This document shows, piece after piece, positions 7,835-23,328 of a DNA stretch of 24,000 nucleotides. The translations under genes were made by a program, and so were the position numbers. Numbering within the stretch: position 1 is the stretch's first letter; each line of letters starts with the position of its first letter. Source of the stretch: Candidatus Saccharimonadales bacterium (GTDB taxonomy: Bacteria; Patescibacteriota; Saccharimonadia; Saccharimonadales; JBBSJF01); contig JBBSJF010000002.1 of assembly GCA_038257495.1 (NCBI GenBank), positions 159-24,158 on the forward strand, read 5' to 3'. The notes under the pieces were generated by a model, which saw only the letters and a program-made list of their open reading frames with translations, had not been told where the DNA came from and did not search any database.

Positions 7835-9793
7835 TCATGCTGGCAATCCGTTAAAGAGAGCGTTTATTAATGGAATAATACCAGGGTCACGACAATCCGT
7901 GCCTCCCCCTCTTTGAGGGACCCCTCCTTGTATACACCCGCGATCTAGATGAAGGTGAGGGTAGGTATTTCGTGCACACTGTGTCCTCCCGATCTGAGCG
8001 ATCTGTTGACCGCTCTTTACCTGGTCGCCAGTCTTGACCGTTAACTGACTGACATGAAGAAAAGCATAAATGAAGTTATCTTTACTAGATTTTAATTGAA
8101 TCGTAAAACAACCAGCATTACCGTCGTAGTTGTCGTTTGCGGAAACTATTTGACCATCAGAAATTGCAAATATTGGTGTTCCTACTGGGTTGGTGTGCAC
8201 AGAAATATCAAAAGCAGGTGAACAGCATCCTGCCGGACCTTTGTGGTGGCACCCACCCGTGTTGCCACAGGGTAAGCTCGACATAGCAGTTACCCTCTTA
8301 TGGGCAGCCTGGCTAGCTGGTGAAACCGGGAAGCTATAGCCTTCGGCGTTTACCACCCCACTACTTCCGGAATTATCGCAACCAGCTCCGCCGGTAGAGC
8401 CTGTCGTATCAGCTACGGGACCCGTGGTCGGAGGAGTACCTGTTCCAGAACCAAGTTTTGCCAGCCATGCCTCGGCAAATGCCATTCGCGGAGCAAAATC
8501 TTGACCAACTTCATATTTATCCTGCCATATTGAAACGGCCGATGCGAGGGTGGTCGCGCTTTTAAGAGGATCAAGTGCGCGTGATTTATAGTATGGGCTT
8601 TCTAGCTCGGTCCACATCCAATCAAGCTGAAGACCCAGGTCATAAACAGGCAAGTTCTTTGCTGCAGCTAGATCTATAAGTCCCTGTTTTCTGCCTGGGC
8701 TGGTCCACTGCACGATGCCGTATCCTGGTTGACCATCTTTTCCTACGGGAGGTGGGACGGTGTCGGACTCCCCACCCCAAGATCTACCCCCCCAGTTACC
8801 CTTTTCTACTATTTTTGGATTAAAATTACCTTCAGTTTGTAGATTTCCCATAGCCCCTGCCGCTTGGATTGCGGTAAGACCCTTGCCCGTTAAGTAATTC
8901 CATACTTTAGACGGGTTATCAGAGCCATTTAAGCCAACACCTGTCGTGCATTTACAGCCGTTACTTCCCGCTCCCGATTGTGTTTCTGTATCTGCTGGCT
9001 GCTGATCTATATTTGGCGGAGGGGCGTTGGGGTCTTGGCTAAGTTCGGCGCGTAACTTTTCCATATATTTTTTTCCTGGATCAAGATTTGTTGTAGTTGT
9101 TTCATAATGACCAAATACCCCTTTCCTGGCGCCTATATCTGACGCCGCTGGTATACTGTATTTTGCCATAAGCTCTCTAATCGTTCCTAAAACAGCTTGG
9201 TATTGAACGGCATTACTAAGCAGGTCTTGCTCGGCTGCCGCTACACTGTCGGTAGTTATGCTTTGTATCTCAATTCCGATAGACGCGTTGTTCCAACTTG
9301 GGTCGACAAAGGTCTGTATGGGCTTGGTCTCAAGCGATTCAGAGAGTTGGTGGACCTTCCCTTGCTTGTCTATGGTGAGCTGTACGGCTCTCCCATTGGG
9401 AAAGCCAGTCGCGACTCGACCTCTCAGTATATTTACCAAATCCTGAGGATTCTTATACTCGTAGGCTGTCCAATGCAGAATTACGCCAGTAGGAGTAATC
9501 TTGGGACCCTTAAAGGGATCTTTTACTCCCGGGTCAGGACCTGTTGGTAATAAAGGTCCGGTAGTTGCTGGCGTGGACTCAGGATTTGGCTTGGGTGGCG
9601 TTTCGTCTAGCGATCCACATCCCGAATCAGGATCATAATAAGGAAATTTTTTTATAATAGCCTCGCGCGTATTCTTCGCTGTAACTCCCATAGGGTACAT
9701 GCCCTGTAAGTACATAGAGACGACCAATATGGGCAGCTGAAAAATTAGTAGAATACGGCGTAGCCGCACTGGGTTTAATCGTTTGTACCGCAT
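7835..9793 (-). CDS. Secreted/anchored three-domain peptidoglycan hydrolase (Amidase_2-like + phage-tail-lysozyme-like + M23 peptidase)
   Basis: The track ORF is 7835-9826. I prefer ATG at 9793 (MRYKRLNPVRL...), which has 'gggag' upstream, whereas 9826 has no RBS. A hydrophobic signal/anchor 'ILLIFQLPILVVSMYL' follows. The amidase_2 pattern is 'GVILHWTA...ASIGIEIQS...GHYE...DPG'. The lysozyme-like pattern is 'AAGAMGNLQTEGNFNP...GYGIVQWTSPGRKQGL...LQLDWMWTEL'. The M23 pattern is 'AFDISV...GTPIFAISDGQIV...YAFLHVS...VKTGDQVKSGQQIAQIGRT...PHLHLD'. Confidence 0.9.
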   Translation of the reverse strand: MRYKRLNPVRLRRILLIFQLPILVVSMYLQGMYPMGVTAKNTREAIIKKFPYYDPDSGCGSLDETPPKPNPESTPATTGPLLPTGPDPGVKDPFKGPKITPTGVILHWTAYEYKNPQDLVNILRGRVATGFPNGRAVQLTIDKQGKVHQLSESLETKPIQTFVDPSWNNASIGIEIQSITTDSVAAAEQDLLSNAVQYQAVLGTIRELMAKYSIPAASDIGARKGVFGHYETTTTNLDPGKKYMEKLRAELSQDPNAPPPNIDQQPADTETQSGAGSNGCKCTTGVGLNGSDNPSKVWNYLTGKGLTAIQAAGAMGNLQTEGNFNPKIVEKGNWGGRSWGGESDTVPPPVGKDGQPGYGIVQWTSPGRKQGLIDLAAAKNLPVYDLGLQLDWMWTELESPYYKSRALDPLKSATTLASAVSIWQDKYEVGQDFAPRMAFAEAWLAKLGSGTGTPPTTGPVADTTGSTGGAGCDNSGSSGVVNAEGYSFPVSPASQAAHKRVTAMSSLPCGNTGGCHHKGPAGCCSPAFDISVHTNPVGTPIFAISDGQIVSANDNYDGNAGCFTIQLKSSKDNFIYAFLHVSQLTVKTGDQVKSGQQIAQIGRTQCARNTYPHLHLDRGCIQGGVPQRGGGTDCRDPGIIPLINALFNGLPA

Positions 9794-12700
9794 CGGTTTG
9801 CTCCCGGCAGCGGATCCCAGTGCCATGCTTCATAACTATATTGTTTGATCCCGTACTGCTCTGCATTCTTTAAAAGCCATTCCCATCGTGGGTTACCGGG
9901 GGCACGCATGCGACCTGGCCCACAACTCGTAGTTGAGTTACCCTTGCCTCCGGCATTTGCAAAATCTATAGCAGCCCCAAGCTGGTGGATAGACTGTCCG
10001 GGTCTAGCACAGGAGCTTCCATCTCCGTTACCTCCACAAGAATCGGCTAGTCTAAAGGAGCTAACCGAGGATAGACCAATCCCGTCTTTTTTAGCCTGTG
10101 CGGCAAGTGCCTGCCATGCACCCGATACATTAGAGCTAACGACTGCCCCGCCGGCTTTTTCGACACCGGCAGTATCATTACCTTCACCAGGAATATCCGT
10201 AACTCGACAAAGTTTTAAGACTATAGGTCCAGGCTGTTTTTTATAAGCCCCGGTGTACTTACTAGTAACCTCACCTATGTCAACCGTACCGGCGGCACAA
10301 GGCACGTTAGTGCTACTTTTACCCAGAGTGCTAGGATCGACTTTAGTGCCCACGCTTGGTGTCGTCCCAGCTCCCGAAGTATCACTACTGGCTTGTTCTA
10401 TGGCGGTAAAGTCTTTCTCTAGATCTTTTACTATGTATTCGTCTGGACCAGTATATATTCGATAGCGAAGCGCCGGCTCGGTACTTAGACCCGGACCAGA
10501 ACAATCAGGGTTTTCTCTTGCGATCTTGTCTGTATCGTTTACTTTCTCGCCCGCAAAACATTTTCCATATTTTTCTTCTAGTGGCGCCAGCCCTCCATGA
10601 CTCTCGATCCATAACTCGTTATTCTCTAGTGTGTAAGACTCATCGGTACGCATTTTCTCGATTTCATCAGGCGAATACCCTCGCTGAACCACATCGTAGT
10701 GGTTGATGGGCGAGGTGTTACCAGCTGCGTATACGGCGCCTGAAGTCATGCCTAGCGAAGCAACATTAGAGGCTAGACCTTGAGGGCTAAAGACATTAAC
10801 AGACTTGAATAAGGAATTCTTGAACACACTTCCTATTCCCGTAGAAGTCACTGGTATAGAAGCCGCGACTTGGCTAACGATAGAGTACGGATTACTAGTT
10901 GCGAAGTACCTTTCTTGGAACGGTAGAGCGTCTACTTGGCTCTTGAGATAACCCTTCTCGTATTTATAGACAGCTGCCGATTCCTGGGGAGTGAGCGGCT
11001 TGCCCTTTACGCCTTTTGTAAGATTTTCGGACTGTAATAGTTCTAGCCCAACATGGTTCTTGCCATATTTTTCTGGTCCAGACTCAGGACCCGCATAGTT
11101 AAGGCTACCGAATAAAGCTACGGAGAGCTGTAGGCCAACATCGATTAGTAGAAACCCCCCAAGTGTCGCAAGTCCTGCTTTTGAGAATATTCCTGTTGCG
11201 GCTCCCTGGAGTGTTTTGCCGAGTCCAGTAACGATGGCTCTACCCAAGGCCTGTTCCGCTGCATTACCCGTACCTCCCGATACGACTGCTATTGCAACCT
11301 GAAGTGCCACATCTACGGCGAGTAAGGTTACCTGTCCAGCGGGGCTTAAAATCCCTTCACAAACTTTAGCGTTCGTAGCATCCACCACAGGACCAACGCC
11401 GGGTATTTCGGTGGCTCCCGGTAGCACGAAATTAGTGGGACTGGTTAGTGCCTGGACTATACTAATAAGTGTAGGGTCTAATTTTGGCTTAGTAGCAGGA
11501 ATGTTGTACTCGGCTGGCATAACAATGTTTTCTTTGCCCACTGCACGCTGATAGTCAGGAGACCTGTCTGCCTGGTCCCACAGCCTTCCGTCGGCAATAG
11601 GAGCTGCACCTTTTACCTCTCCAGATCTAATCTGGTCGGCACCAGAAAGGGCGTCGTGTCCCATGCGTTTAGCAGCATCTTGGTTCTTTTCTTCCGATTC
11701 TTCTATTTTGCTCGCGGCATCATTGATCATGCACGCAAGGGTTACGATCTGGGAGCCAATAGAGACTGTATTAGCGGCTGCTTCAAGACCGCCTACTTTA
11801 TTGTTCTTTAACGCATTACGCACAGCTTTCTGTGGATCGTACTTGCCGCCATCTTCTGCGATCGCTTTCTTGGCTTCTTCGGGGATATCATCAAGGGTAT
11901 CATTAAGTCTGGGAGAGGAAGCATCTACGTGCTCCCTGCTCACATTATCTATGAGATCTTGCTTATTTTTAATATCCGCCTCTACTGGTGTTTTGCCTAC
12001 ATAATCCCTACCCTTTTGCCGCCACTTAGACATCTTAATGCCACTTTTTAGCCGGATATTATCAAAGACGGCGTTACGTGCTGCTTTGCCTTCTATTTGT
12101 AAGTTTTTTCCTACTCCTGTCTGCACTTTGTCTGTAAAGATTTTGCGGGCTGTCATCTTTTCCCTTAGCGTTAGGTCCTTAAAAGATTTTCCCTTAAACG
12201 TTTCTTTAGATACATCGTCTATGGCTATCAGTTCTCCGTCTATGCGTAGCCCCTTAAAGTCACCTCCTTTGCGGTTTAGGAAGCCACTTTTTTCCTCGAA
12301 TTCAAACCGTAGTTGGTCGTTGGCACCAAAGTCCCGTAGTTGTTTTTCAATATCTATGCCTCGAAGTCTGTCTCTTAATTTAGTCTTGGGTCTAGGAACG
12401 GTGCCTGGTCCATCTACCAGTGCTGCGTCAAAAAGGTTTTGAGCGGTTCGTTCCCGCAGAATAAAGTGGAACCTGGCAAAGCCAGATCGGAGTAATATCT
12501 CTCCAAAATGTACGGACTTAAAACCGCTCAAGAAAAACAGAAGGAACAGTCCGATAGCCAAGATAGATAATATGCCACCCGCTCCTCCACCGGCTAAAAG
12601 GAGTTTTTTTCTCTTGCTTCTTCCGGACGATGTGCCACTCGCTTTAGAGCGCTTGGGCAAGAAGCCACGAATCTTGGACTGTTCATTTGAGTCATCGGAT

Positions 12701-12930
12701 TCGTCAGGATTATATAGTGATTCGCCTTCCTCTGGGCTTTCGTCTTCGCCACTCTCGGCGTTGTTTAACTGGTCTGCACCTAGCCCATCTTTTTTTAGGG
12801 TTGCGCTTTTCTGGTCATCAATAGCCGAAAACTTATCGCCATACTTGGTATCTAGCTGGCGTTCCAAATCCCCCAGGTGCTGTAGCCGGTCTGTGTCTTT
12901 ATCTGGTTCAATCCCGTTATTTGTGGGCAC
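9775..12930 (-). CDS. Large bitopic/polytopic membrane protein with C-terminal VanY/peptidase M15 (D-Ala-D-Ala carboxypeptidase-like) domain
   Basis: 1051 aa, GTG start with aggag RBS inside the end of virB4. The first ~105 aa are acidic and low-complexity, followed by basic 'KRSKASGTSSGRSKRKK' and TM 'LLLAGGGAGGILSILAIGLFLLFFL' (aa ~109-137). There is a central Gly/Ala-rich hydrophobic block 'VTLLAVDVALQVAIAVVSGG...LATLGGFLLIDVGLQLSVALFG'. The C-terminus 'SSFR...ARPGQSIHQLGAAIDF...WEWLLKNAEQYGIKQYSYEAWHWD' matches the VanY/M15 metal-binding motifs (S.H..G.A.D ... E.WH). Confidence 0.85.
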   Translation of the reverse strand: MPTNNGIEPDKDTDRLQHLGDLERQLDTKYGDKFSAIDDQKSATLKKDGLGADQLNNAESGEDESPEEGESLYNPDESDDSNEQSKIRGFLPKRSKASGTSSGRSKRKKLLLAGGGAGGILSILAIGLFLLFFLSGFKSVHFGEILLRSGFARFHFILRERTAQNLFDAALVDGPGTVPRPKTKLRDRLRGIDIEKQLRDFGANDQLRFEFEEKSGFLNRKGGDFKGLRIDGELIAIDDVSKETFKGKSFKDLTLREKMTARKIFTDKVQTGVGKNLQIEGKAARNAVFDNIRLKSGIKMSKWRQKGRDYVGKTPVEADIKNKQDLIDNVSREHVDASSPRLNDTLDDIPEEAKKAIAEDGGKYDPQKAVRNALKNNKVGGLEAAANTVSIGSQIVTLACMINDAASKIEESEEKNQDAAKRMGHDALSGADQIRSGEVKGAAPIADGRLWDQADRSPDYQRAVGKENIVMPAEYNIPATKPKLDPTLISIVQALTSPTNFVLPGATEIPGVGPVVDATNAKVCEGILSPAGQVTLLAVDVALQVAIAVVSGGTGNAAEQALGRAIVTGLGKTLQGAATGIFSKAGLATLGGFLLIDVGLQLSVALFGSLNYAGPESGPEKYGKNHVGLELLQSENLTKGVKGKPLTPQESAAVYKYEKGYLKSQVDALPFQERYFATSNPYSIVSQVAASIPVTSTGIGSVFKNSLFKSVNVFSPQGLASNVASLGMTSGAVYAAGNTSPINHYDVVQRGYSPDEIEKMRTDESYTLENNELWIESHGGLAPLEEKYGKCFAGEKVNDTDKIARENPDCSGPGLSTEPALRYRIYTGPDEYIVKDLEKDFTAIEQASSDTSGAGTTPSVGTKVDPSTLGKSSTNVPCAAGTVDIGEVTSKYTGAYKKQPGPIVLKLCRVTDIPGEGNDTAGVEKAGGAVVSSNVSGAWQALAAQAKKDGIGLSSVSSFRLADSCGGNGDGSSCARPGQSIHQLGAAIDFANAGGKGNSTTSCGPGRMRAPGNPRWEWLLKNAEQYGIKQYSYEAWHWDPLPGANRCGTND

Positions 12931-12933
12931 CTA

Positions 12934-14829
12934 CTATACTCCTGGAGTTAGTCTATTATTTAGGTCTATTGTACCTTGTCCGGAGTCAATCCTGCCAGTT
13001 TGCTCGAGTTGTTTTATTTGCTCGGGATTGGTGGTGATGAGGCTGGTTTCGGTGGCGCTAGCCGCAATCTGTATGTGCACATGGTTCTGACCAGCAAAGA
13101 ACAAACCTTGTCCTACCGGGAACTGGCTAAGGCGCTTCTTCTCTTCACTGGTAAGTTTAAACACATCTGCCAGTACATCTACGGCACTTGTAGATTGTTT
13201 TAACAATAGTTGCATGGAAGCGTTCGCTACGATTGCCCGCCCCATGCGTGAACCCATAAAGTCTTCCACATCCTGGGTAATAGTGGTTATACCAAGGTTA
13301 TATTTACGGGCACGCTTCGCCAAGCTAAACATAAATTGGGCGGAGTCTTCATATTTCATAAGCTGCCAGGCTTCATCAATAATCAGCAATCGCTTTTTCT
13401 GCTCTGCTTTGGTTTTATTCCATATGTAGTTAAGAACGATATACATAGCCACGGGTCGTAGTTCGTCCTCTAGGTCGCGGATATTAAACACCACCAGTGG
13501 ATTATCAATATTGATATTACTAGGCTGTGAAAAAATGCCCGCGAACGTCCCAGACGTATATTTACGAAGTCTTTGGGCGAGTTGTGGACCTGTGCCCCCC
13601 ATGTGTAGGAGCGAATCATAAAGGTCACTAATGGTTGGTGGCGGCGAAGTATGCGTAAGTGGGTCGTTGGTTATACCCGCTTTCGCGTAGGTTTCGATTA
13701 GTGCAGCGTCTAAGTCGGCTTCTTCTACGGGGCTCAGAACCTGAACCATACCCGCACCGGCTGCCTGTGCGCTCGCGCCTCCCATCATAAGCCTGAGCAG
13801 ACCATGTAAGGTTATAAGATTACTCCGAAGCGCATTGTCTGCTTCGTCCGAATCTACAACACGTGGTATGTCGAATGGATTAATACGGGTGGAGCTGTTT
13901 AGGCTGAGTCGGACATAGGCGCCACCAGCCGCGTCACACATTCGTTGATATTCATTTTCGGGGTCAATAATAAACACTTCTATGCCAAACATCATGCTGC
14001 GCAGGGCTTCTAGCTTCACAGCAAAACTTTTACCGGCACCCGATTTGGCAAAAACTAATGCATTGGCATTCTCTAGGCTAAAACGGTCGAAGATTACCAA
14101 ACCCGAGTTATGCATATTAATACCGTATAGTACGCCGTGATCGTCGCTTAGATCTGCGCTAGTAAATGGAAAACTAGTGCTAAGAGCCCCGGTATTAAAG
14201 TTGCGTCTAATCTGAAGCTGGTCTGTAAACTGAGGCAGTGTGCTATTAAATGCTTGCTCCTGTTGGCTGGTTGCCGGTTTGGAGTAAACTAGTTGCTGTC
14301 CAAGTATTGACTCTACTTTGTGTGATACAAATTCGAGTTCGTCCATGCTAGATCCGTAGAGGGTAAAATATATTCCAAAGCGGAAAAATCGCTCCTCTCC
14401 AACCTGTAGCTTGTCTCGCATTTCTTCCGCGTCCATTATGGCAGCCTGTTTGCCGGGGTCTCGAATCTTGCCTTTTTCGGCGTCAATCTGCAGCCCCGCT
14501 TCTAGCTGCGTAACTTTTTTGCGTAGGTTTTCTAGCACCACCTGGCTTTCTACGGGATAAATAAACATCGACATGTCCATGACCTCGTCGATATTTACCA
14601 TGGGGCTTAGCCAGCCTGTATAAATTTGGCGAGGATATCCATAAATATAATATGTACGCCCGAATCGCGTGCCAAGCTGAAAATGCGTGCTTGATAGTTC
14701 GAGCGAGCTGGGTGCGATAAAGTCTCGCAGTGCAGTAATACCTTTTTGAAAAGCCGCATTAACATCTTGCTGCTCGCGCTCGCGTTGTAACTGCGCTAAT
14801 GCTACTGGGTCTAGCTGTTGCTTAGCCAT
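12934..14829 (-). CDS. virB4: VirB4/TrbE/CagE-family T4SS ATPase (Gram-positive PrgJ/TraE type)
   Basis: Walker A 'FAKSGAGKSF', 'FIIDPENEY', Walker B 'RLLIIDEAWQL', 'ITQDVEDF', and N-domain pattern 'FIAPSSLE....FQLG..FGRTYYIYGYP..IYTGWLSPM'. I place the start at ATG 14829 (MAKQQLDP...), which has a strong aaggagg RBS 5 nt upstream. The track's longer ORF (to 14925) adds 32 unlikely residues that cover a hairpin. Confidence 0.93.
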   Translation of the reverse strand: MAKQQLDPVALAQLQREREQQDVNAAFQKGITALRDFIAPSSLELSSTHFQLGTRFGRTYYIYGYPRQIYTGWLSPMVNIDEVMDMSMFIYPVESQVVLENLRKKVTQLEAGLQIDAEKGKIRDPGKQAAIMDAEEMRDKLQVGEERFFRFGIYFTLYGSSMDELEFVSHKVESILGQQLVYSKPATSQQEQAFNSTLPQFTDQLQIRRNFNTGALSTSFPFTSADLSDDHGVLYGINMHNSGLVIFDRFSLENANALVFAKSGAGKSFAVKLEALRSMMFGIEVFIIDPENEYQRMCDAAGGAYVRLSLNSSTRINPFDIPRVVDSDEADNALRSNLITLHGLLRLMMGGASAQAAGAGMVQVLSPVEEADLDAALIETYAKAGITNDPLTHTSPPPTISDLYDSLLHMGGTGPQLAQRLRKYTSGTFAGIFSQPSNINIDNPLVVFNIRDLEDELRPVAMYIVLNYIWNKTKAEQKKRLLIIDEAWQLMKYEDSAQFMFSLAKRARKYNLGITTITQDVEDFMGSRMGRAIVANASMQLLLKQSTSAVDVLADVFKLTSEEKKRLSQFPVGQGLFFAGQNHVHIQIAASATETSLITTNPEQIKQLEQTGRIDSGQGTIDLNNRLTPGV

Positions 14830-14852
14830 GCGCGCCTCCTTTTGGAGACACA

Positions 14853-14936
14853 GTAGATAGTAGATGGTAGCTGGCATATGGGTCGAAAGGGATCGAAACC
14901 AGGTGCTCCACTCGCCACCTTCCATCTACCATCTGC
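14853..14936 (-). other. Long imperfect inverted repeat (about 22-bp stem) in the 123-nt gap upstream of virB4
   Basis: 14853-14874 'gtagatagtagatggtagctgg' against the reverse complement of 14915-14936 'ccaccttccatctaccatctgc' gives 18/22 matches by hand alignment. The ~40-nt loop contains a direct repeat 'tcgaaa'. On the mRNA the 3' arm ends about 10 nt before the virB4 RBS. Confidence 0.45.
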
Positions 14937-14952: not shown

Positions 14953-15885
14953 TCATAGCAGCTCCCTGTCTAGGTGTGGGGTTGGGGCTTCGCCCTCACC
15001 CTTGGTAACAATCGGTACCGTTAAATCACTAAAGTTCCTAAGTTGTTGGCGCGTAGCAGTATCGGGGTTATAGGCATCGTAGTATAACTCGATAAGCTCT
15101 TGAGTATCTAGGGGCAAGCCCTGCACGCCGCACTGCATAAGACCGCTTAGGACAGACTGTATCCTGTTGCGTAGTTCGTCCTTTGCCTTAAGTAGGTCTC
15201 TCTCGTTGATGGTAACGTGCTGTTCTTTCTGGTTAAAAAGCGCCGTAAAGTTGCCAAAAAAGTTTTTACTAGCTTCTACTGCCGCTCCTGCCGAAACGGA
15301 CTCAGAATAATAAGGAATGATTAGATAGAACCGTTTATCCATAATATTAGTTTGGACCGCTAAGTCACTCACGAACGCTATATAGTCTTCCATTAACAGC
15401 GCCAAAAGCATGTTCTCGTGTTCGCCACGTATTTTATCTAGCTTCTCTATATAAGGGCCGAGGTCTACTTTTTGGGATCTTACCTGAATTTGTATAGGAA
15501 AATAGAGTGAGTTTAAGAAGCCTTGGTACCCACCTTCTACGGCCTCCCGCTCACCAGGGCTCATGAGGTCAAAGTTGATGCTTTTTGCCATTACGACTGC
15601 TCGGAATGAGCCGTCATTCATAATGACGATACCATCACGTACTTCGGCTATCTGTAACGTATTTTGTGTACTGTTTGGGTTAGATTTCGACTTAAGTGCC
15701 GGGTTGGGTGCCGGCGCGGTGCCGGGTTGTTGACCATATACTATCGGAGGAACGCTCTGCGGGTATTGCGGCGGCGGGGCTTGTTGCTGTGGTAGGGTCT
15801 GAGGATAAGCAGGCATAGACCCTTGTTGTTCTGGAGCCGCTTGGTATGGATTAGTTTGGTATGGCTGTTGTGTATTTGGTTCCAT
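14953..15885 (-). CDS. P/Q-rich protein with VirB4-N-terminal-domain-like core (no P-loop); T4SS-like accessory subunit
   Basis: 310 aa. The first ~75 aa are P/Q/Y-rich and low-complexity (PYQTNPYQAAPEQQ...QQQAPPPQYPQ). The core 'IAEVRDGIVIMNDGSFRAVVMAKSINFDLMSPGEREAVEGGYQGFLNSLYFPIQIQVRSQKVDLGPY' and later 'LSGLMQCGVQGLPLDTQELIELYYDAYNP' resemble my recollection of the N-terminal region of Gram-positive VirB4/Orf16-type ATPases. There is no Walker motif. The functional call is inference. Confidence 0.7.
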   Translation of the reverse strand: MEPNTQQPYQTNPYQAAPEQQGSMPAYPQTLPQQQAPPPQYPQSVPPIVYGQQPGTAPAPNPALKSKSNPNSTQNTLQIAEVRDGIVIMNDGSFRAVVMAKSINFDLMSPGEREAVEGGYQGFLNSLYFPIQIQVRSQKVDLGPYIEKLDKIRGEHENMLLALLMEDYIAFVSDLAVQTNIMDKRFYLIIPYYSESVSAGAAVEASKNFFGNFTALFNQKEQHVTINERDLLKAKDELRNRIQSVLSGLMQCGVQGLPLDTQELIELYYDAYNPDTATRQQLRNFSDLTVPIVTKGEGEAPTPHLDRELL

Positions 15886-15918: not shown

Positions 15919-17025
15919 CTAGCGCAACGATATGATAACTTCACCGTCATCAGGTTTCTGACGATTGGCAAGTTTTGCTATCGTTTCCACCTTCAAATCA
16001 TTACTTTTGGCAAGTTCCAGTGTAGCAGGACTGGGGGGTTTTGTCATGGAAGCATTAGCGGTAACCTTGGCTCTTTCTGCGGCAGCGCGGCGTTCATCTT
16101 CTGCAAGCTCACTGGGTGTTTTAAGTCGCTTCATATGGCTATGGTAGGCGACGTCGTCATTCTTGCGCTGGTCGGTGTGTATTTGTTGCAAAAGCGCCTC
16201 CTCTTCTGCCGTAGGGGTGGTGGGCGCTACGGGAGCGCTAGAAGACTGGGGTGCAACTGAAACGCTTTGGAATGTTACCGCCCCATCAGAACCGTTGGCG
16301 GTCGCTGTATTCCTAGATGTAGGCAGTATGGTGCTTCCTACTCCTATGTTTGAGCTTTCGGGTGAGGAATTTTGGATCTGGTTAACGATGCGTTGCCGGT
16401 TTTCCTGAGTTTGCTGCCGAATCATCTGATCCATCTGCTTGGCTAGGGGGTTATTGTCGGCGTCCATTATGTCGTCCTCCGGAGCCACTAAAATAGTAGG
16501 CACGGTTTGCGGCAACGTACTTGCCTCTACCAACCTATCTGATTCTTGGGCGTTACTCCCCATGGCATAACCCGATTGGTGGGAGTACATATTGACGCTA
16601 ATATTCTTTACGGCCCACCCTCTGCTATCTAGAGTACTAGAAAGGGCATTAAGACGGCTGCGCACCTGCTGTTGGTCTAGACCGTCGGTATATATGCGCT
16701 CGATCTTTTTGGGCGCGGTTATGTGTACAAAGTCTATTACGCCGCTCTGGTTCCAGAGTCTTTTTCGGGGCTTTATAGCAAACCGTATCTTAGCCTGCAA
16801 CCATATTTCTGTGGGCTGATCTCGACCAAGCGGGGCGGCTAATATGCCGAGAACTAAAATAGGAGGAATTATAGGTATGACCAGAATTGGGCTAACCAAG
16901 AATAAGCGAAAAGCAAAAAAGATAAGAATAACGTCGATAATAACAAATATAAACTGCTTGAGCGTCAAGGGTCCAAGTATTTTGTCCTCTGCCTCGATAT
17001 CTTGAATTACTTTATATGTCGCCAT
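15919..17025 (-). CDS. PrgI-family (VirB3-like) membrane protein with long C-terminal extension
   Basis: The N-terminus 'YKVIQDIEAEDKILGPLTLKQFIFVIIDVILIFFAF' followed by a second TM 'ILVIPIIPPILVLGILAAPLG' matches the PrgI/VirB3-like pattern (...DI..EDKI.G.LT.RQ + two TMs). It lies immediately upstream of the VirB4-region genes. The residues after about aa 110 form an S/A/P/Q-rich, probably disordered extension. Confidence 0.7.
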   Translation of the reverse strand: MATYKVIQDIEAEDKILGPLTLKQFIFVIIDVILIFFAFRLFLVSPILVIPIIPPILVLGILAAPLGRDQPTEIWLQAKIRFAIKPRKRLWNQSGVIDFVHITAPKKIERIYTDGLDQQQVRSRLNALSSTLDSRGWAVKNISVNMYSHQSGYAMGSNAQESDRLVEASTLPQTVPTILVAPEDDIMDADNNPLAKQMDQMIRQQTQENRQRIVNQIQNSSPESSNIGVGSTILPTSRNTATANGSDGAVTFQSVSVAPQSSSAPVAPTTPTAEEEALLQQIHTDQRKNDDVAYHSHMKRLKTPSELAEDERRAAAERAKVTANASMTKPPSPATLELAKSNDLKVETIAKLANRQKPDDGEVIISLR

Positions 17026-17027
17026 AT

Positions 17028-19847
17028 TTATAGTCCGTCATATGTTGATTTATGTGCTGGGTCTGCGAACCTGTCTTTTTCTGTCTTGCCGCTAGGATCT
17101 ATGTATGCGTTACCGGATAATATCGCCAAGTTCTCGGCACCCATAGAGGCTTTTATCTTTTCACTGTCCTTAATGCCCTTCATCTGTGCCTCCATGCGGC
17201 TTACGGTTGCAACCGCAACTGGATCCGCTGGTTTTGCTTTCGCATCCGCAAATTGCTCACGCCACATAGAAAATGTTGAAGTATCCCAAGACGCCATTGA
17301 TTCGGAGCTTGCGGTTGTAAGCGATCCCGCCCCTTTTACCATATCGGGGGCCTTCTCGTTAAATGACCCAAAATTGGACTGTTTTGCACCTTGCCATAAA
17401 GTTTGACCGGCTTTATCGGCTTTACCCTCAGTACTATTCTCAAAGTATTCTTGAACTGCCCTAGCTTCGGGTATAAGACCTTTTTTACCTATCTGATCCA
17501 TCGCCCATTGCTTAGATGCCCTGTCGCCTCCCAGGGTTTTTCCATTGAACTCGACTTTCTTTCCTGTTGCAAGTGCCTGTAGGTGCTTACTAAGATCGGC
17601 ACTTCCCTCTAACTGGCTGGCGATTAATTCTTGCTGGAACGCGTCTTGCTGTACTTTCTCGCCTTGTGCTGCCTGTGCAGCTTGCCCACGACTCCATCCA
17701 GCCCGTGTTCCCTTGAGGCCTACGGGACTTTGACCAGAACCGAGCGCATTTGCGTTAAGACTTCTTCTTGCCATAAAGCCTCGGATGTTCTTCTTATCAC
17801 GATTCAGATAATTTCCATATGCGGCATTTTCCTTTCGTGCCTTGCGGGTATTGGTACGGAAGTTTTTGGTGCGGTCGAACATGCCCTTGCTACGGTTGTT
17901 TGCCATGCCGGTGAGCGTCCCTACTAGGCCACCCGCTAAGGTAAGGGCTTTTGGAAGGGCAAAATAGGGTCCAAAGTAAGCTATAAACATTACAATCTGC
18001 TGGAACGCGTCTATCTGTCCGTCTGGCGCCGAATTTTTTATGATTGTTGCTATGACCCGCCCAGACATAATAAACGCCATCATAATCGGGAACATCAGGA
18101 GTGCTTTGCTAAATGTTTCCCACCAAAACTTCCATATTTTTTGAGTATTTGGCAACGCGTTCGAGGCAAAAGCGAGTGGAGCAAACACTACCAGCACAAT
18201 CAGGGCCATTTCACGAAAAACTAGAATAGCCAGAGCAGTACCAACGGCAAGAAGCGCCGTAACGCCAAAGCTGAGTAGCCCAATGATTCCAAATGCAGCC
18301 GCAAACCCTACCACGCCGATCGTGATTATGCCATTTACTACACTATTCCCTCCTGAATCCAGAGGAGGTAAATCTCGGATCGGTATATACATTAGCGCGC
18401 GCACACCGAGCCCGATGTCGTTAGAAATATTAATGGCCAACTTACATAGGTCCCACGATATAGTCATAAGCAAAGCCGCTACTAACAGCTTGGGCAGCAC
18501 TTTCTTAATAGTATAAGCCTCGAAGATACCAATATTAAGAGCCTGGGAGATAACCATGGCGAGTATGCCTATAATAATAAATGCCAGAGACATTTTGCGC
18601 ACCACGTCCCATGCTTGATAGAGTCCCGCGCCCGTTGGGCTATTTTCGTTAAATGGGCTGTTGTTGCCATCTGTATCTATGTGTAGCTTTTGGGTAATAG
18701 CATTGTCTAAAAGCCGGACCGCAGCGTTGGCGGCGTCAATAATAGGGCAAGCTATCCAAGTGAGCGGGTTCTTTAGGCTAAAGTCACAGCCAATCTCGGG
18801 TTCTCTGCTTCCTCCTTCCCCGATAGGGGTTCCGTCTGGGTTTACGGGGTTTCCAGCAGGATTATCAGATCCGGCAATACGAACCTTAACCCGGCTATTA
18901 CCGCCCTTTTTATGTATAAAAACATCTTTTGTCCCCGCCCCTACGCCCTCAAAGTCTTTTTCGCCCACCTTTGAGTTATCCTCATTCAGTAGCTCAAGGT
19001 TACCAGAGCAGTTCGCTCCATTATCCCAGTTGCTACCGCACCACGTAAAACTGCGGGTGTTCTGCTCGTCTCTAGATACGTGCTGTATCTTACCGTTTTT
19101 AAAACCGTATGTAACATTAAAGTTCTCCAAATCTGCGTCCGAGAAAAGCTTAGCTATCAATAAGCCCGTTTCCAGTGAAACGTCTGCCCGAGTACCTGAT
19201 CCAATACAGTTCCATTCGTATGAATTACCTTTTAGGGTATAAACAAAATTACCGTTTTGGACTCCAGTACAGTCGAACCCACCGACTACGTCTTCCTCTA
19301 CGGAAATAACATATTCTGCACCATTATCTGCTCCAGCTTCAAGGCATTGTCTAATACTTGGTATATCAAGTATCTGGTCTCTTCCTCCGGTGGCATCGTC
19401 TTTATTGACTCCACATCCACCGTCTTTTGTATCAAAATTATCAATCCTGCTGTCGTCTAATGCCCTTTTGCCCTTCTCATTCCTATAGTCAAAGTCTCCG
19501 TCTGAAGTATTGATGTCGGTCATTGTAAGTGTAATGAGCGGCGCAATATCGACAGTTCCGATAAGCTTGTCTCCTGGGCATCCGCCGGGTTTGTATGTTA
19601 CTTCTATAGATGCCCTATTCTTGAAACGAATAGACATCCAGCCACCGGGGGCTCGCTTTTTGTTTCTTGGACTGTATTCTGATGTAGGAAGATCACAGAA
19701 CTCGGGAATCGTCACCCCTGTGGCGTATTCTTTACTTGCCGCCTTTGCCTGACCAGAAAATAGTACGGGTACTACAATAACAGCAACAAGAAAAGCTGCT
19801 CCAAATAATGCCCCGCCCCGCTTAAGTTTATCGATCATTGTAACCAT
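17028..19847 (-). CDS. VirB6/TrbL-like polytopic channel protein with large Cys-rich N-terminal ectodomain and long C-terminal tail
   Basis: 939 aa with RBS aggtga. Signal peptide 'GALFGAAFLVAVIVVPVLFSGQAKAAS', then a ~370-aa Cys-containing domain. About 7-8 TM helices follow (aa ~415-640, e.g. 'LAFIIIGILAMVI', 'IITIGVVGFAAAFGIIGLLSFGVTALLAVGTALAILVF', 'LIVLVVFAPLAFAS', 'LLMFPIMMAFIMSG'), then a ~300-aa hydrophilic tail. It is the first gene of the operon, 2 nt from the next gene. The family call rests on topology and context, not on a diagnostic motif. Confidence 0.65.
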   Translation of the reverse strand: MVTMIDKLKRGGALFGAAFLVAVIVVPVLFSGQAKAASKEYATGVTIPEFCDLPTSEYSPRNKKRAPGGWMSIRFKNRASIEVTYKPGGCPGDKLIGTVDIAPLITLTMTDINTSDGDFDYRNEKGKRALDDSRIDNFDTKDGGCGVNKDDATGGRDQILDIPSIRQCLEAGADNGAEYVISVEEDVVGGFDCTGVQNGNFVYTLKGNSYEWNCIGSGTRADVSLETGLLIAKLFSDADLENFNVTYGFKNGKIQHVSRDEQNTRSFTWCGSNWDNGANCSGNLELLNEDNSKVGEKDFEGVGAGTKDVFIHKKGGNSRVKVRIAGSDNPAGNPVNPDGTPIGEGGSREPEIGCDFSLKNPLTWIACPIIDAANAAVRLLDNAITQKLHIDTDGNNSPFNENSPTGAGLYQAWDVVRKMSLAFIIIGILAMVISQALNIGIFEAYTIKKVLPKLLVAALLMTISWDLCKLAINISNDIGLGVRALMYIPIRDLPPLDSGGNSVVNGIITIGVVGFAAAFGIIGLLSFGVTALLAVGTALAILVFREMALIVLVVFAPLAFASNALPNTQKIWKFWWETFSKALLMFPIMMAFIMSGRVIATIIKNSAPDGQIDAFQQIVMFIAYFGPYFALPKALTLAGGLVGTLTGMANNRSKGMFDRTKNFRTNTRKARKENAAYGNYLNRDKKNIRGFMARRSLNANALGSGQSPVGLKGTRAGWSRGQAAQAAQGEKVQQDAFQQELIASQLEGSADLSKHLQALATGKKVEFNGKTLGGDRASKQWAMDQIGKKGLIPEARAVQEYFENSTEGKADKAGQTLWQGAKQSNFGSFNEKAPDMVKGAGSLTTASSESMASWDTSTFSMWREQFADAKAKPADPVAVATVSRMEAQMKGIKDSEKIKASMGAENLAILSGNAYIDPSGKTEKDRFADPAHKSTYDGL

Positions 19848-19935
19848 AATATCACCTAATGCACTATCTTATGAATACCAAAAAAGACAAATCAGGCTCA
19901 TTGTGGTACAGTTATTTTAAAGAGAGTACAAATAA
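19848..19935. promoter_or_regulatory. Divergent control region shared by the two arms of the T4SS-like locus
   Basis: This 88-nt AT-rich gap lies between the first minus-strand gene (start 19847) and the first pilin-like gene (start 19936). A weak minus-strand candidate promoter is TTGTCT-N16-GATAGT. I cannot see a convincing plus-strand -35/-10 pair. Confidence 0.4.
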
Positions 19936-20667
19936 ATGCTTAAAATTAATAGTTTAAAAAACATTTTCACCTTAGTCCTTCTCGGCTCTATCTTCATGAT
20001 TATGGGCAGCGTGTCTGTCGTTCGGGCCGAACAAAAAGAGGTGGGATTCTCGTGTCCTACCGGCAGGGCTACATTAGAAAAGACAGACATCGTCCGCTAT
20101 AGATGTCCCCCAAGTAATCCTCCCCCAGGGTTCCTAGTAGGTACGCCACGAGCCATTAGGGGCAGCGAGGTTCTTGTAATAAAAGTCGACTGTGGTCCAC
20201 TAAATGTGAGTGTTGGTGTCGGTGATGTCTTTTGCGATAACGACAATGACCTTTCCAATGGATCCAGTAAGCCCGATCCGAATAAGGTAACCGAGGTTCG
20301 ACGGATCCCGGCAGATGCTAACGCTGCTCCTATTTCCCCCACAGCCACACCAGACGTAGGTGGAGGAGGTGGCGATATTAACCGAGCTGTAGACCCAGCC
20401 ATTACTTGCGAGGTAGAGAAGCAAGGGAGCGACTGTGATCTTATTAAGAAGTACCTAAACCCTATTATTAAATTTCTCTCATTTGCAGTTGGTATCGTGG
20501 TTACTGGTGTAATTATTTTAGGAGGTATTCAATACTCGGCATCGGGCGGTGATCCTGGGGGCGTGGCTGCGGCAAAAAAACGAATTATAAACGCTTTTCT
20601 AGCACTCGCCTTTTATATGTTCTCGCTGGCTATACTTAATTGGTTAATACCAGGAGGCCTTGTGTAA
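19936..20667 (+). CDS. T4SS pilin-like (VirB2/TrbC-type) protein with extended Cys-rich N-terminal ectodomain
   Basis: 243 aa. Signal peptide 'IFTLVLLGSIFMIMGSVSVVRAEQ'. A ~140-aa domain with 6 Cys and a P/G-rich linker follows. The C-terminal two-helix pilin hairpin is 'FLSFAVGIVVTGVIILGGIQYSASGGDPGGVAAAKKRIINAFLALAFYMFSLAIL'. Confidence 0.75.
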   Translation: MLKINSLKNIFTLVLLGSIFMIMGSVSVVRAEQKEVGFSCPTGRATLEKTDIVRYRCPPSNPPPGFLVGTPRAIRGSEVLVIKVDCGPLNVSVGVGDVFCDNDNDLSNGSSKPDPNKVTEVRRIPADANAAPISPTATPDVGGGGGDINRAVDPAITCEVEKQGSDCDLIKKYLNPIIKFLSFAVGIVVTGVIILGGIQYSASGGDPGGVAAAKKRIINAFLALAFYMFSLAILNWLIPGGLV

Positions 20668-21041
20668 TGGGGATTTTTAAACTTATTGCCGGAGCATCTT
20701 GCCAGTTATCAGGTGGGAGTTTCTTTGGATTGCCTACATGGTACAAATATCTGGCGGATAAAGGAGAGGTAGACCCCTTGGGACGTTGTCGTTATGTACC
20801 TAAAGTCGAGAATATGGGTGATGGTTTATTAGTTCTACTGGGGTTAGTAGATATTTTACTCCGGGTCGGTGGTATGGTGGCGTTTGGTTTTATAGTTTGG
20901 GGCGGTTTACAGATGGTGCTTAGCCAGGGCGAACCCGATAAGCGAGCTAAGGCTGTAACTACGCTTATTAACGCCGCTATAGGACTGGTTATAACCCTTT
21001 CTGCGGCAGGTATATTGTCTTTTGTGGCAGGTAAGTTTTAA
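20667..21041 (+). CDS. T4SS pilin-like (VirB2/TrbC-type) protein, paralogue 2
   Basis: I place the start at ATG 20667, which overlaps the upstream TAA (taATG) and has aggagg 10 nt upstream. The track's 20640 start lies inside the previous gene. The hairpin is 'GLLVLLGLVDILLRVGGMVAFGFIVWGGLQMVLSQGEPDKRAKAVTTLINAAIGLVITLSAAGIL'. No classical signal peptide. Confidence 0.75.
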   Translation: MGIFKLIAGASCQLSGGSFFGLPTWYKYLADKGEVDPLGRCRYVPKVENMGDGLLVLLGLVDILLRVGGMVAFGFIVWGGLQMVLSQGEPDKRAKAVTTLINAAIGLVITLSAAGILSFVAGKF

Positions 21042-21044
21042 AAT

Positions 21045-21320
21045 ATGAATATGTACCTAGCCCAATTAGACATATCCCCCTTGCCCAACATACAGCCCAA
21101 TGAAGCTACGGCACTTATCATTACTAATACTGTTTTCGGTATTATTGGGGCAATCTGTATGATCGTCATCCTTTTACTCGCTTTTAAGTTCATCACCTCC
21201 AGGGGCAATCCAGAGGCTACCGGTAATCTAAGAAATGGCATTATTTTTGCTGGTATAGGTCTTGCTATATGCATAGCTGCTAGCTCAATTGTTTCTTTCA
21301 TTATAGGTCGTGCCAGATGA
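21045..21320 (+). CDS. T4SS pilin-like (VirB2/TrbC-type) protein, paralogue 3 (shortest, Cys-less N-terminus)
   Basis: 91 aa. The hairpin is 'ALIITNTVFGIIGAICMIVILLLAFKFITSRGNPEATGNLRNGIIFAGIGLAICIAASSIV'. It starts 3 nt after the previous stop. Confidence 0.7.
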   Translation: MNMYLAQLDISPLPNIQPNEATALIITNTVFGIIGAICMIVILLLAFKFITSRGNPEATGNLRNGIIFAGIGLAICIAASSIVSFIIGRAR

Positions 21321-21700
21321 AGTATTTCGCAGTTTTTCTTTTCACTCTCTTTACCTTTCTGTTTGTGTCTAGCGGAACCGGACATGCCGTGAACCTATTT
21401 CTCGCATGCGATGACCCGGCAGTCTCTGATTCCTCCGTTTGTAAGGATCAAAGTCGTCCGATCGCCATTAGCGGAAACGACAGTCTACTTTCAAGGGTGG
21501 TTGGTGTTTTAGCGTTGATTATTGGATTTAGTGGGGTTTTGCTCATGATTTGGGGCGGTATGAACTATATTATGGCGAATGGTGATTCACAAAGAGTAGC
21601 AAAAGCAAAAGATACTATATTGTTTGCTTCCATTGGTCTGATTATTGCGATTTTTGCACGGGTTATCATCGGGTTTGCTTTAGCGAGGATCGGAACATGA
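21317..21700 (+). CDS. T4SS pilin-like (VirB2/TrbC-type) protein, paralogue 4
   Basis: 127 aa. ATGA start/stop overlap with paralogue 3. Signal peptide 'MKYFAVFLFTLFTFLFVSSGTGHA', Cys loop 'CDDPAVSDSSVC', and hairpin 'VVGVLALIIGFSGVLLMIWGGMNYIMANGDSQRVAKAKDTILFASIGLIIAIFARVII'. Confidence 0.8.
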   Translation: MKYFAVFLFTLFTFLFVSSGTGHAVNLFLACDDPAVSDSSVCKDQSRPIAISGNDSLLSRVVGVLALIIGFSGVLLMIWGGMNYIMANGDSQRVAKAKDTILFASIGLIIAIFARVIIGFALARIGT

Positions 21701-22071
21701 AATACCTATTCATCTCATTATTAGCTGTAGCCTGCTTTTTAGGAATAAGTAGTCCTGTAGTCTCTTATGCTCAAGCAGAGCAAGAAGTTTGCGGCGGTGT
21801 CCAAATAGTCTCAGGAGAACCATGTGATGCGCCAGGAGGCGAAAGCAGAGTAAAATCTATAATGCAGCTTGGCTTAGATATATTTGCGATTGTTATGGGG
21901 ATTATCGCTGTTTTTATGATTATTATTGCCGGGCTAACAATAGCAACCTCTGCAGGAGACTCCTCGAAAATCAGTAAAGCACGCGACTCCATCATATATG
22001 CTTCGATAGGTTTGGCAGTAATAGTTTTCGCCAGGATATTAGTACAGTTCGTAATCAGTAGATCGGCTTAA
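21697..22071 (+). CDS. T4SS pilin-like (VirB2/TrbC-type) protein, paralogue 5
   Basis: 124 aa. ATGA overlap with paralogue 4. Signal peptide 'MKYLFISLLAVACFLGISSPVVSYAQA', Cys loop 'CGGVQIVSGEPC', and hairpin 'LDIFAIVMGIIAVFMIIIAGLTIATSAGDSSKISKARDSIIYASIGLAVIVFARILV'. Confidence 0.8.
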   Translation: MKYLFISLLAVACFLGISSPVVSYAQAEQEVCGGVQIVSGEPCDAPGGESRVKSIMQLGLDIFAIVMGIIAVFMIIIAGLTIATSAGDSSKISKARDSIIYASIGLAVIVFARILVQFVISRSA

Positions 22072-22135
22072 TCTATGCTTTTTATTAAGTCTCTCTGTGT
22101 ACCGTCATTTTGGCTCCAAGAAGCGGTCTAAAGTG

Positions 22136-22164
22136 TTGATTTTGTACCTAGGTTACTATATGAT
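22136..22164 (+). promoter_or_regulatory. Candidate sigma70-type promoter for the sixth pilin-like gene
   Basis: TTGATT (22136-22141)-N17-TATGAT (22159-22164), located in the 120-nt gap before the gene at 22192. RBS aaagga lies before the ATG. Confidence 0.35.
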
Positions 22165-22191
22165 CAGAGTATATTATACGAAAGGAAAACA

Positions 22192-22590
22192 ATGTTAAAA
22201 AGAATGTTAATAAGTATAGCTGCTAGCGTGAGTCTCTTGGTGCCTATGGCCATGCCCGTGGCAGTACATGCTCAACTTGGAGAAGAAATTAAAAAAGGTG
22301 CTTGTCTAAACACTACCGATGCCAACTGTGCAGGTACAGAAGATCCAGAAGGAAAAGTTAATGACTTACTCAAACAAGCGATCACTCTTTTCTCTATAGT
22401 GGTCGGGGTAATTTCTGTCGTCATGATCATCGTGGGTGGTCTTAAGTACATCACTTCCGGTGGAGAATCTGGCAATGTTACGGGTGCTAAAAATACCATT
22501 CTGTATGCGGTGATAGGTCTGATCATTGTGGCTATGGCACAATTTATTGTACAATTTGTTCTAAAGAAGGCTACCGATATTTCTACATAA
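22192..22590 (+). CDS. T4SS pilin-like (VirB2/TrbC-type) protein, paralogue 6
   Basis: 132 aa. Signal peptide 'MLISIAASVSLLVPMAMPVAVHAQ', Cys loop 'CLNTTDANC', and hairpin 'ITLFSIVVGVISVVMIIVGGLKYITSGGESGNVTGAKNTILYAVIGLIIVAMAQFIV'. Confidence 0.8.
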   Translation: MLKRMLISIAASVSLLVPMAMPVAVHAQLGEEIKKGACLNTTDANCAGTEDPEGKVNDLLKQAITLFSIVVGVISVVMIIVGGLKYITSGGESGNVTGAKNTILYAVIGLIIVAMAQFIVQFVLKKATDIST

Positions 22591-22659: not shown

Positions 22660-23151
22660 CTATAAAATCTGGATCTTCTTAACAGTATCTTGCTTCAGCT
22701 TTGTAAAGCTAATTGTGAGCACCCCGTCTTTGAGTACGGCTTCGATCTCGTCTTCTTTAACGGATACCGGTAGTACAATGCTACGGCTAAATTCGCCCCA
22801 ATAACATTCCTGCACAAAGTAGTTCTCTACTCCATCTTCATTGCCAGCAGAAAGCGTGCCGCGAATACTAAGCGTATTGTCGGCGATACTTACGTCTAAC
22901 TCACTCTTATTTACCCCCGCGGTACGAGCCTTAACGACTAGCCGTTCTTTCGTTTCGTAAACATCTACGGCTAATTGACCGGTCACTGCTTCTTCTTCGT
23001 CCCAATCGTCACCTGTGTTGCTTGTTGATGAGCCATCGTCGGTTGCCACGGTGGTGTCGTCGTCCATTGATCCCATCCCATCATCGCCTAAAAAAGCCGC
23101 AGTTAGTTCATCCTCCATCAATAAGTCTTCGTCTCGGTTTCGTCGTGCCAT
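22660..23151 (-). CDS. Hsp20/alpha-crystallin family small heat-shock protein
   Basis: 163 aa with RBS ggaggga. An acidic N-terminal region is followed by the alpha-crystallin domain 'QLAVDVYETKERLVVKARTAGVNKSELDVSIADNTLSIRG.........GEFSRSIVLPVSVKEDEIEAVLKDGVLTISFTK'. Confidence 0.93.
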   Translation of the reverse strand: MARRNRDEDLLMEDELTAAFLGDDGMGSMDDDTTVATDDGSSTSNTGDDWDEEEAVTGQLAVDVYETKERLVVKARTAGVNKSELDVSIADNTLSIRGTLSAGNEDGVENYFVQECYWGEFSRSIVLPVSVKEDEIEAVLKDGVLTISFTKLKQDTVKKIQIL

Positions 23152-23187
23152 TATGTGTTACTCCCTCCAGAGCTTATCGGTTTTTTT

Positions 23188-23209
23188 GTAGCAGAGTATT
23201 ACTCGCTAC
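23188..23209. promoter_or_regulatory. Operator-like palindrome in the hsp20 leader
   Basis: The 22-bp imperfect palindrome 'gtagcaGAGTAtTACTCgctac' lies about 37 nt upstream of the hsp20 ATG. Its GAGT/ACTC core recalls the half-sites of the CIRCE and HAIR heat-shock operators, but the spacing is different. Confidence 0.3.
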
Positions 23210-23328
23210 TTATGTATAATTAAGAGAACTGAAGTTTTTATGTTCCTTATAGTATAACGAGCAATGCGATAGATAAGCAATGATTGACATAAGCTATTTA
23301 CAACATAACTATTACAACAGGCAGTTTT

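Follow-up and report, generated by a model that had tools for sequence, protein, structure and literature searches.

Why would a type IV secretion system (T4SS) be accompanied by six pilin genes in a row, and are their products interchangeable variants or fixed parts of a single machine? The question is raised by six consecutive open reading frames (ORFs) on the plus strand of a 24,000-nucleotide (nt) stretch of DNA from Candidatus Saccharimonadales bacterium (assembly GCA_038257495.1, contig JBBSJF010000002.1, positions 159 to 24,158 of the forward strand), which we call the window and whose own numbering is used throughout. The six ORFs occupy 19936-22590 and encode 243, 124, 91, 127, 124 and 132 amino acids (aa). 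Saccharibacteria are ultrasmall bacteria that live on other bacteria, and their T4SS is essential for this life on a host bacterium. The function of that system has been described as completely unknown (PMC11665869). The six-gene array has already been published, and its recognition in the window is a correct rediscovery; what is added here is incremental, namely an analysis by position, a conserved promoter of gene 6 and a hypervariable outer domain of pilin 1. As judged from sequence comparison, the six genes are an ordered set of VirB2-like (PF18895) pilins of a chromosomal, origin-proximal Saccharimonadales T4SS, and their six positions are strict orthologues in a fixed order.

The positional orthology emerges from ORFs taken from 80 related loci and searched with a profile of the window's six hairpins, a search that yielded 291 pilin ORFs from 53 sources (52 related loci and the window). 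The pilin ORFs of the related loci all lie on the strand opposite virB4. Exactly six genes are present in 31 arrays (window included) and seven in five others, while shorter arrays are cut off by the limit of the retrieved locus or hold fused genes. When the 30 six-gene arrays outside the window were used to build a separate profile for every position, each window pilin scored highest at its own position: 136 bits for pilin 1 (best other position 47), 128 bits for pilin 2 (56), 82.5 bits for pilin 3 (50), 106 bits for pilin 4 (75), 104 bits for pilin 5 (89) and 163 bits for pilin 6 (137). A first phmmer assignment to single window paralogues had been ambiguous for positions 3-5 and was resolved by these per-position profiles. 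The order 1 to 6 is also kept in every array with a gene number other than six. Median identities of same-position hairpins across genomes are 43, 50, 45, 41, 55 and 70% for positions 1-6, and identities between positions within one genome are 25-47%, except for 65% between positions 5 and 6; this last pair is 41% identical in the window, compared with 65% in most relatives. That the ordered array recurs in 53 loci, the window included, speaks against a chance grouping.

Each position also keeps its own length, leader and cysteine pattern. At position 1 (131-297 aa, with a leader and about six Cys ahead of the hairpin), the window has pilin 1 (19936..20667, +, 243 aa), in which a putative signal peptide is followed by an outer domain (~125 aa, six Cys) and then the hairpin (PF18895 34.9 bits). 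Proteins of position 2 (118-211 aa) carry a leader in about one-third of species and a Cys pair mostly 20-30 residues apart that flanks the sequence FxGLPxWYxYL; alignment of the orthologues shows this motif to be conserved within the Cys loop and the N-terminus to be variable. The window's pilin 2 (20667..21041, +, 124 aa) has a short N-terminus, a 28-residue Cys...Cys loop and the hairpin (49.4 bits). Position 3 (90-119 aa) has no leader and usually no Cys pair, and pilin 3 (21045..21320, +), at 91 aa the smallest of the six, lacks both a signal peptide and a Cys pair (39.6 bits). Positions 4-6 (about 125-150 aa) have leaders and Cys pairs commonly 7-14 residues apart, and all three window proteins show a putative signal peptide, a Cys pair and the hairpin: pilin 4 (21317..21700, +, 127 aa, spacing 10, 33.8 bits), pilin 5 (21697..22071, +, 124 aa, spacing 10, 38.2 bits) and pilin 6 (22192..22590, +, 132 aa, signal peptide ending VHA, spacing 7, 47.4 bits).

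All six proteins exceed the gathering cut-off of the T4SS_pilin family PF18895 (33.8-49.4 versus 26.6 bits, E 4e-8 to 5e-13). On the TrbC/VirB2 profile (PF04956, gathering cut-off 27.9 bits), gene 6 scores 27.5, gene 3 17.1 and gene 2 11.5 bits, and the others give no match. Homology of position 6 to TrbC/VirB2 is nevertheless likely from profile evidence, since 39 of 44 gene 6 orthologues match that family at E<1e-3. The NCBIfam family NF045849, a pilin-like conjugal transfer protein of Mycoplasma integrative and conjugative elements, is matched by all six at E 4e-9 to 1.5e-4 (21-36 bits versus a cut-off of 40), and pilin 3 tops the six with 36.1 bits, below that cut-off; the position-3 profile aligned to PrgF by hhalign with a probability of 8.9%. 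Hydropathy shows two C-terminal hydrophobic stretches in each of the six proteins, which all share a two-helix hairpin with a short charged turn, G-[DEN]-[PS] followed by basic residues. The AlphaFold 2 (AF2) model of pilin 6 contains helices at 52-88 and 96-131 (pLDDT 73) together with a modelled leader helix, and that of pilin 1 also has a leader helix, in addition to hairpin helices at 167-202 and 207-237 (pLDDT ~81), its outer domain staying below 50. A profile search of solved structures returned only chance-level matches to membrane proteins, and the Pfam scan found no enzymatic domain among the six proteins. Hydrophobic N-terminal leaders with an A-x-A-type site are present in pilins 1, 4, 5 and 6 and absent in pilin 3, with pilin 2 ambiguous. 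The Cys spacings in paralogues 1, 2, 4, 5 and 6 are 8, 28, 10, 10 and 7 residues; paralogue 1 has six Cys in total, and paralogue 3 has none before helix 1, its two Cys sitting within the helices. Pairwise identity among the window's hairpins is 23-41%.

Genes 1-5 are tightly packed throughout the related arrays, where they overlap or nearly touch (median spacings -4, -1, -4 and +8 nt), and the gap before gene 6 is always 44-122 nt. In the window, genes 1 and 2 meet in a TAATG junction (20665-20669), a 3-nt spacer separates genes 2 and 3, ATGA overlaps join genes 3/4 and 4/5 (21317-21320 and 21697-21700), and a 120-nt gap (22072-22191) lies between genes 5 and 6. A sequence-only reading of the window had described six tandem VirB2/TrbC-type pilin ORFs with these positions and lengths, the taATG and ATGA overlaps, the 120-nt gap and Cys pairs in five divergent paralogues out of six, with paralogue 3 as the one lacking a pair, and it was accurate in each of these respects, the pilin type being borne out by PF18895 membership of all six, by the T4SS neighbours and by the TrbC matches of gene 6 orthologues. 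The profile search that it proposed came out positive for T4SS_pilin, with six of six above the cut-off, and negative for TrbC/VirB2, with none of six reaching it. RNA folding of the 120-nt gap is no better than that of shuffled sequence (z = 0.64), no convincing terminator was found between genes 5 and 6, and the window contains no Rfam families or tRNAs.

The start of gene 2 was assigned to the ATG at 20667, preceded at a distance of 9 nt by an AGGAGG box. A mechanical ORF list gives a TTG start at 20640 instead, which was rejected because the box favours the ATG and because the conservation of the upstream peptide at this TTG is only apparent: it reflects the ribosome-binding site together with the conserved C-terminus of pilin 1. 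That C-terminus ends in WLIPGG, and the P, G and G of this end are invariant across 33 diverse pilin 1 orthologues. At 20647-20667 of the window, the P-G-G codons of pilin 1 (CCAGGAGGC) contain the AGGAGG ribosome-binding site of gene 2, so that WLIPGG may be under a double constraint, acting on protein and mRNA alike; a role as a processing signal is another possibility.

Natural fusions provide a view of how neighbouring subunits are oriented. Pilins 2 and 3 are fused into one ORF of ~218 aa in three genomes as assembled (L008:1849-2502, L013:750-1412 and L024:3678-4334, all on the minus strand), and pilins 1 and 2 in one further genome as assembled (L078:1545-2387, minus strand). The fusions of pilin 2 to pilin 3 suggest that these two are neighbours. 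Since they put the C-terminus of pilin 2 and the N-terminus of leaderless pilin 3 on one and the same side, they also suggest that this N-terminus points outward.

Gene 6 differs from the other five in its control region. In 30 of 31 arrays, the gap before it contains the motif TTGAnn-17/18-(TGn)TATAAg, whose -10 element ends 26-36 nt ahead of the ATG; the -35 TTGA element is absent from all control regions upstream of genes 1-5. The site found in the window by a consensus scan, TTGATT-17-TATGAT (22136..22164, +; -10 ending 27 nt before the ATG), fits this motif exactly. Copy-number change in the arrays is limited to the last position. The additional gene of seven-gene arrays is always of the position-6 type; L033, L051, L057 and L060 have two position-6 genes each, and L046 has three position-6-like genes and no position 5. 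These patterns hint at repeated duplication or gene conversion at the 5/6 end of the array. Gene 6 would be the likeliest candidate for the major subunit, with genes 1-5 encoding low-copy specialised ones, because position 6 is the most conserved, the closest to TrbC/VirB2, the only one with a conserved promoter of its own and the only one to be duplicated. A tblastn search with pilin 6 against 72,556 plasmids gave no match, and an exact look-up of its sequence on public contigs was likewise empty; the collection searched has this protein as one NCBI entry only. A weak candidate promoter is present before gene 1 (19884-19912, +; AAGACA-17-TACAGT, with TG two bases before the -10 element, ending 23 nt before the ATG); its 8 of 12 matches fall under the scan threshold of 9, and no conserved counterpart was found in relatives.

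The first subunit is distinguished by its variability. Database relatives of pilin 1 cover only the C-terminal 18-58% of the protein, and in BLASTP the N-terminal parts of orthologues align in 12% of pairs, the window's outer domain in 0 of 30. An exhaustive HMMER search of 1.84 billion representatives found no prokaryotic relative of this domain, which matched only itself and two eukaryotic immunoglobulin (Ig)-repeat proteins at E 7e-24 and 7.5e-11, values that sum 9 and 5 weak matches to near-identical repeats and are not significant singly. Residues 47-113 of pilin 1 (20074-20274) align with one such Ig repeat at 27% identity over 63 residues (30 bits), and its Cys57 and Cys100 coincide with the canonical Ig cysteine pair. 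The domain has no match to a Pfam Ig family and no usable AF2 fold, and an Ig-like outer domain is a lead only. As a candidate for contact with the host, this hypervariable and cysteine-rich domain of pilin 1 ranks first.

Published genetics bear directly on whether the six genes can replace one another. In Ca. Southlakia epibionticum ML1, SEML1_0014-0019 are six PF18895 genes of 399, 558, 312, 381, 384 and 417 bp (Wang 2023, Cell; PMC10633639), and transposon sequencing (Tn-seq) at outgrowth points T1 and T2 found all six to be individually essential (PMC10633639 supplement). The order, the positional orthology, the features of each position, the packing of genes 1-5 and this published essentiality together indicate six fixed, non-redundant subunits and not an interchangeable pool.

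The array adjoins and points away from a T4SS operon of Gram-positive type on the opposite strand. Nearest to it is the candidate VirB6-like assembly platform, a multi-pass membrane protein of 939 aa (17028..19847, -) that is transcribed away from the array. This protein has no Pfam match in the window scans; its homologues have a precomputed PF19590 match, and one has a faint TrbL match (E 0.13). Only about its central third (~36%; 30-44% query coverage), the multi-pass membrane part, is common to database homologues; the domains on either side, a large outer one at the N-terminus and another at the C-terminus, appear to be fast-changing, like the outer domain of pilin 1. The operon continues with a PrgI family (VirB3-like) protein (15919..17025, -; PF12666, 42.8 bits), a TrsD-like protein of 310 aa (14953..15885, -) with weak matches to NCBIfam TrsD and the CD1110 VirB4 N-terminus (E ~2e-4), and a VirB4-type ATPase (12934..14925, -; TraG P-loop 93.4 bits, AAA_10 48.1 bits) that is 81-86% identical to the VirB4 of 80 species-level Saccharimonadales genomes, which marks the organism as an uncultured representative of this order. 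Two large cell-wall hydrolases (7835..12930, -), one of 1051 aa with a VanY/M15 C-terminus and one of 663 aa with amidase, phage-tail lysozyme and M23 domains (Pfam), would play the VirB1 role. Their ORFs overlap by 52 nt as called (9775-9826), and the true start of the 663-aa gene, the downstream one, may lie at a codon beyond the one listed. A 537-aa ORF between recF and the hydrolase genes (6185-7798, -) has no Pfam or NCBIfam match and may be an uncharacterised part of the T4SS operon.

Beyond the operon lie recF, dnaN and dnaA, followed by rpmH, rnpA and yidC, which is the chromosomal origin. Within the origin region (1955-2373), rpmH occupies 1955-2092 (-), and three sites resembling DnaA boxes (2189-2315) directly precede dnaA; from here it is ~3.8 kb to the start of the T4SS operon and ~17.6 kb to that of the pilin array. 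Downstream of the array (22660-24000), an Hsp20 gene (-) is followed by a ComF-type phosphoribosyltransferase gene (+), as in Ca. Southlakia, and the linkage of Hsp20 to the pilin array is thus conserved.

With moderate confidence, we read the array as encoding a fixed multi-subunit pilus or conduit in which pilin 6 is the major subunit and pilins 1-5 are specialised. Each pilin would start out embedded in the cell membrane as a helical hairpin whose short basic turn faces the cytoplasm and whose two termini lie outside. A cleaved Sec signal peptide would bring pilins 1, 4, 5 and 6 into the membrane, pilin 3 would enter without one, and pilin 2 may use a leader in some species. By analogy with classical systems and the PrgF model, the VirB4 ATPase and the VirB6-like platform would then extract the hairpins from the membrane and build them up as a short pilus or conduit, which would cross the cell wall, opened by the adjacent hydrolases, towards the host bacterium. 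Pilin 6 would be its main building block. The tight packing or overlap of genes 1-5 makes it probable that pilins 1-5 are produced at low, fixed levels, and they would act in initiation, as adaptors or at the tip. Host contact would fall to the outer domain of pilin 1, and the paired cysteines may form a disulfide loop on the outer surface. A more detailed version, which we put forward only tentatively, is one hetero-oligomeric pilus with a shaft of pilin 6 expressed from its own promoter and a one-off initiation or tip complex of pilins 1-5, in which pilins 2 and 3 are neighbours and a possibly Ig-like, disulfide-bonded domain of pilin 1 sets the host.

The sequence-only reading had suggested a heteromeric or staged filament and had noted a candidate promoter for the sixth gene. 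That promoter has gained support from the motif of the related arrays, and the filament proposal is favoured by the own-position profiles, the constant order, the gene 6 promoter and the essentiality of all six orthologues (PMC10633639). Its alternative suggestion, variation of a surface structure, finds no support where the whole set is concerned, but fits the hypervariable outer domain of gene 1.

Several points weigh against a pilus or conduit built in this way. Gene 6 falls 0.4 bit under the TrbC cut-off and the remaining five far under it. A search of PDB structures with the pilin 6 model gave nothing significant, a bare helical hairpin carrying little information. Signal peptides were called on hydropathy and A-x-A sites alone, the 939-aa protein is VirB6 only by inference, and neither a relaxase nor a coupling protein was found in the window. 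The proposed major and minor roles are drawn from patterns of conservation, promoters and duplication. No filament of these proteins in Saccharibacteria was found in the published literature, in which the sole hint of a filament is a preprint describing tubular structures in another patescibacterium.

A membrane-proximal stalk is a serious alternative, although we judge it unlikely. In that case the hairpins would be permanent T4SS components located within the membrane or immediately above it, such as stalk or channel rings, and would never form an extracellular pilus. For Saccharibacteria, as for Gram-positive T4SSs, a pilus has yet to be visualised; a layered static structure would suit six different subunits that are each essential and keep a fixed order; and a cell with one membrane has only a short distance to span. 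However, position 6 is close to the pilus-forming TrbC/VirB2 family, the separate promoter and the duplications of gene 6 suggest a high-copy polymer, and polyethylene glycol (PEG)-labelling of PrgF supports membrane extrusion in a related single-membrane system (bioRxiv 10.64898/2025.12.18.695078).

Far less probable, and in our view largely refuted, is that the six are interchangeable major pilins serving antigenic or host-range variation, as proposed for the multi-copy virB2 genes of Bartonella and Anaplasma. This has been suggested for Patescibacteria (PMC12102498), and low identity between paralogues and the hypervariable outer domain of pilin 1 agree with it. It is contradicted by the strict orthology and constant order of the positions in 53 loci (window included), by the leader, Cys pattern and length that each position retains and by copy-number change at position 6 only, and six individually essential genes in Ca. 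Southlakia imply that they do not substitute for one another (PMC10633639). Fixed order, the gene 6 promoter, natural fusions and the hypervariability of the first subunit favour a machine of several subunits over a system for variation. In the 2020 reading the proteins are effectors or toxin subunits that leave the cell through the T4SS, comparable to those of pertussis toxin beside ptl. This reading is refuted for practical purposes. Although four to five of the proteins carry putative signal peptides at the N-terminus and are encoded next to T4SS genes, each of the six has two membrane-spanning helices at its C-terminal end and matches a pilin family, no enzymatic domain, expected of an A subunit, was found, and the similarity to S1 in that paper is 11% (PMC7427843).

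McLean 2020 described a T4SS region in TM7x and other Saccharibacteria with four to six small signal-peptide proteins, which were likened to the pertussis toxin locus (PMC7427843). The closest published counterpart is SEML1_0014-0019 of Ca. Southlakia, where six tandem PF18895 genes also lie on the strand opposite a VirB6-like gene, with Hsp20 and a ComF-type gene after them and dnaA-dnaN-recF upstream. In both arrays the third gene is the shortest and the last is set apart; the match seen is one of gene neighbourhood (SEML1_0013-0021). The window's TrsD-like protein occupies the same position as SEML1_0009, and the 939-aa protein corresponds by position to SEML1_0013, a large membrane protein beside the pilins that was called TrbL/VirB6 by structure. 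In Ca. Southlakia, Hsp20 and the hydrolase counterparts SEML1_0006 and SEML1_0007 rank among the essential genes, unlike the ComF-type gene, and the place of the 537-aa ORF is taken by two small essential exported proteins, one with a PEGA domain (PMC10633639). The two loci differ in gene 1 (243 aa here, 132 aa there), in gene 2 (124 versus 185 aa) and in the interval from PrgI to the pilins, which holds one large membrane protein in the window and two plus a small non-essential gene in ML1.

At a wider scale, Quiñonero-Coronel 2025 reports 441 arrays with 2-11 pilin genes from 383 assemblies, at 25% mean identity, situated near dnaA and without relaxases, and proposes antigenic or host variation (PMC12102498). 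The window resembles these arrays, and the Sec-secreted array of TM7x, in having divergent pilin genes near virB4, often near dnaA, and no relaxase nearby. Positional orthology, a last-gene promoter and a hypervariable outer domain of the first gene are not reported in the portions of McLean 2020 and Quiñonero-Coronel 2025 that we consulted.

Like the VirB2/TrbC pilins (PF04956), the window's proteins are small, are encoded at a T4SS locus and have two hydrophobic helices linked by a short charged turn, and most of them would begin as pre-proteins with a leader. The double-membrane systems that use VirB2/TrbC normally have one such gene, whereas here there are six fixed paralogues, all below the family cut-off, with a longer mature N-terminus that carries the Cys pair, in a cell without an outer membrane. 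Among single-membrane systems, PrgF of pCF10 is a VirB2-like protein that is essential for conjugation and has been modelled as a pilus on a VirB6 pentamer, and most Gram-positive conjugative plasmids encode a VirB2-like protein (bioRxiv 10.64898/2025.12.18.695078), which weakens the case that patescibacterial pilins were borrowed from double-membrane systems. PrgF and the NF045849 proteins are leaderless two-helix hairpins encoded beside VirB6, PrgI and VirB4 genes, the same minimal build as that of pilin 3, but each of those systems has one gene, versus six here. The pilin array is the main feature that separates the Saccharibacteria T4SS from Gram-positive conjugation systems, and the comparative results make the question of major versus minor subunits testable.

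The arrangement of the six genes also recalls type IV pili and type II secretion pseudopili, in which minor subunits prime or cap the fibre and an abundant subunit is encoded together with a low-copy, non-redundant set. The likeness is one of logic only, as fold and machinery are unrelated. If the single hetero-oligomeric pilus outlined above were true, it would be the first VirB2-type fibre with a dedicated set of minor pilins.

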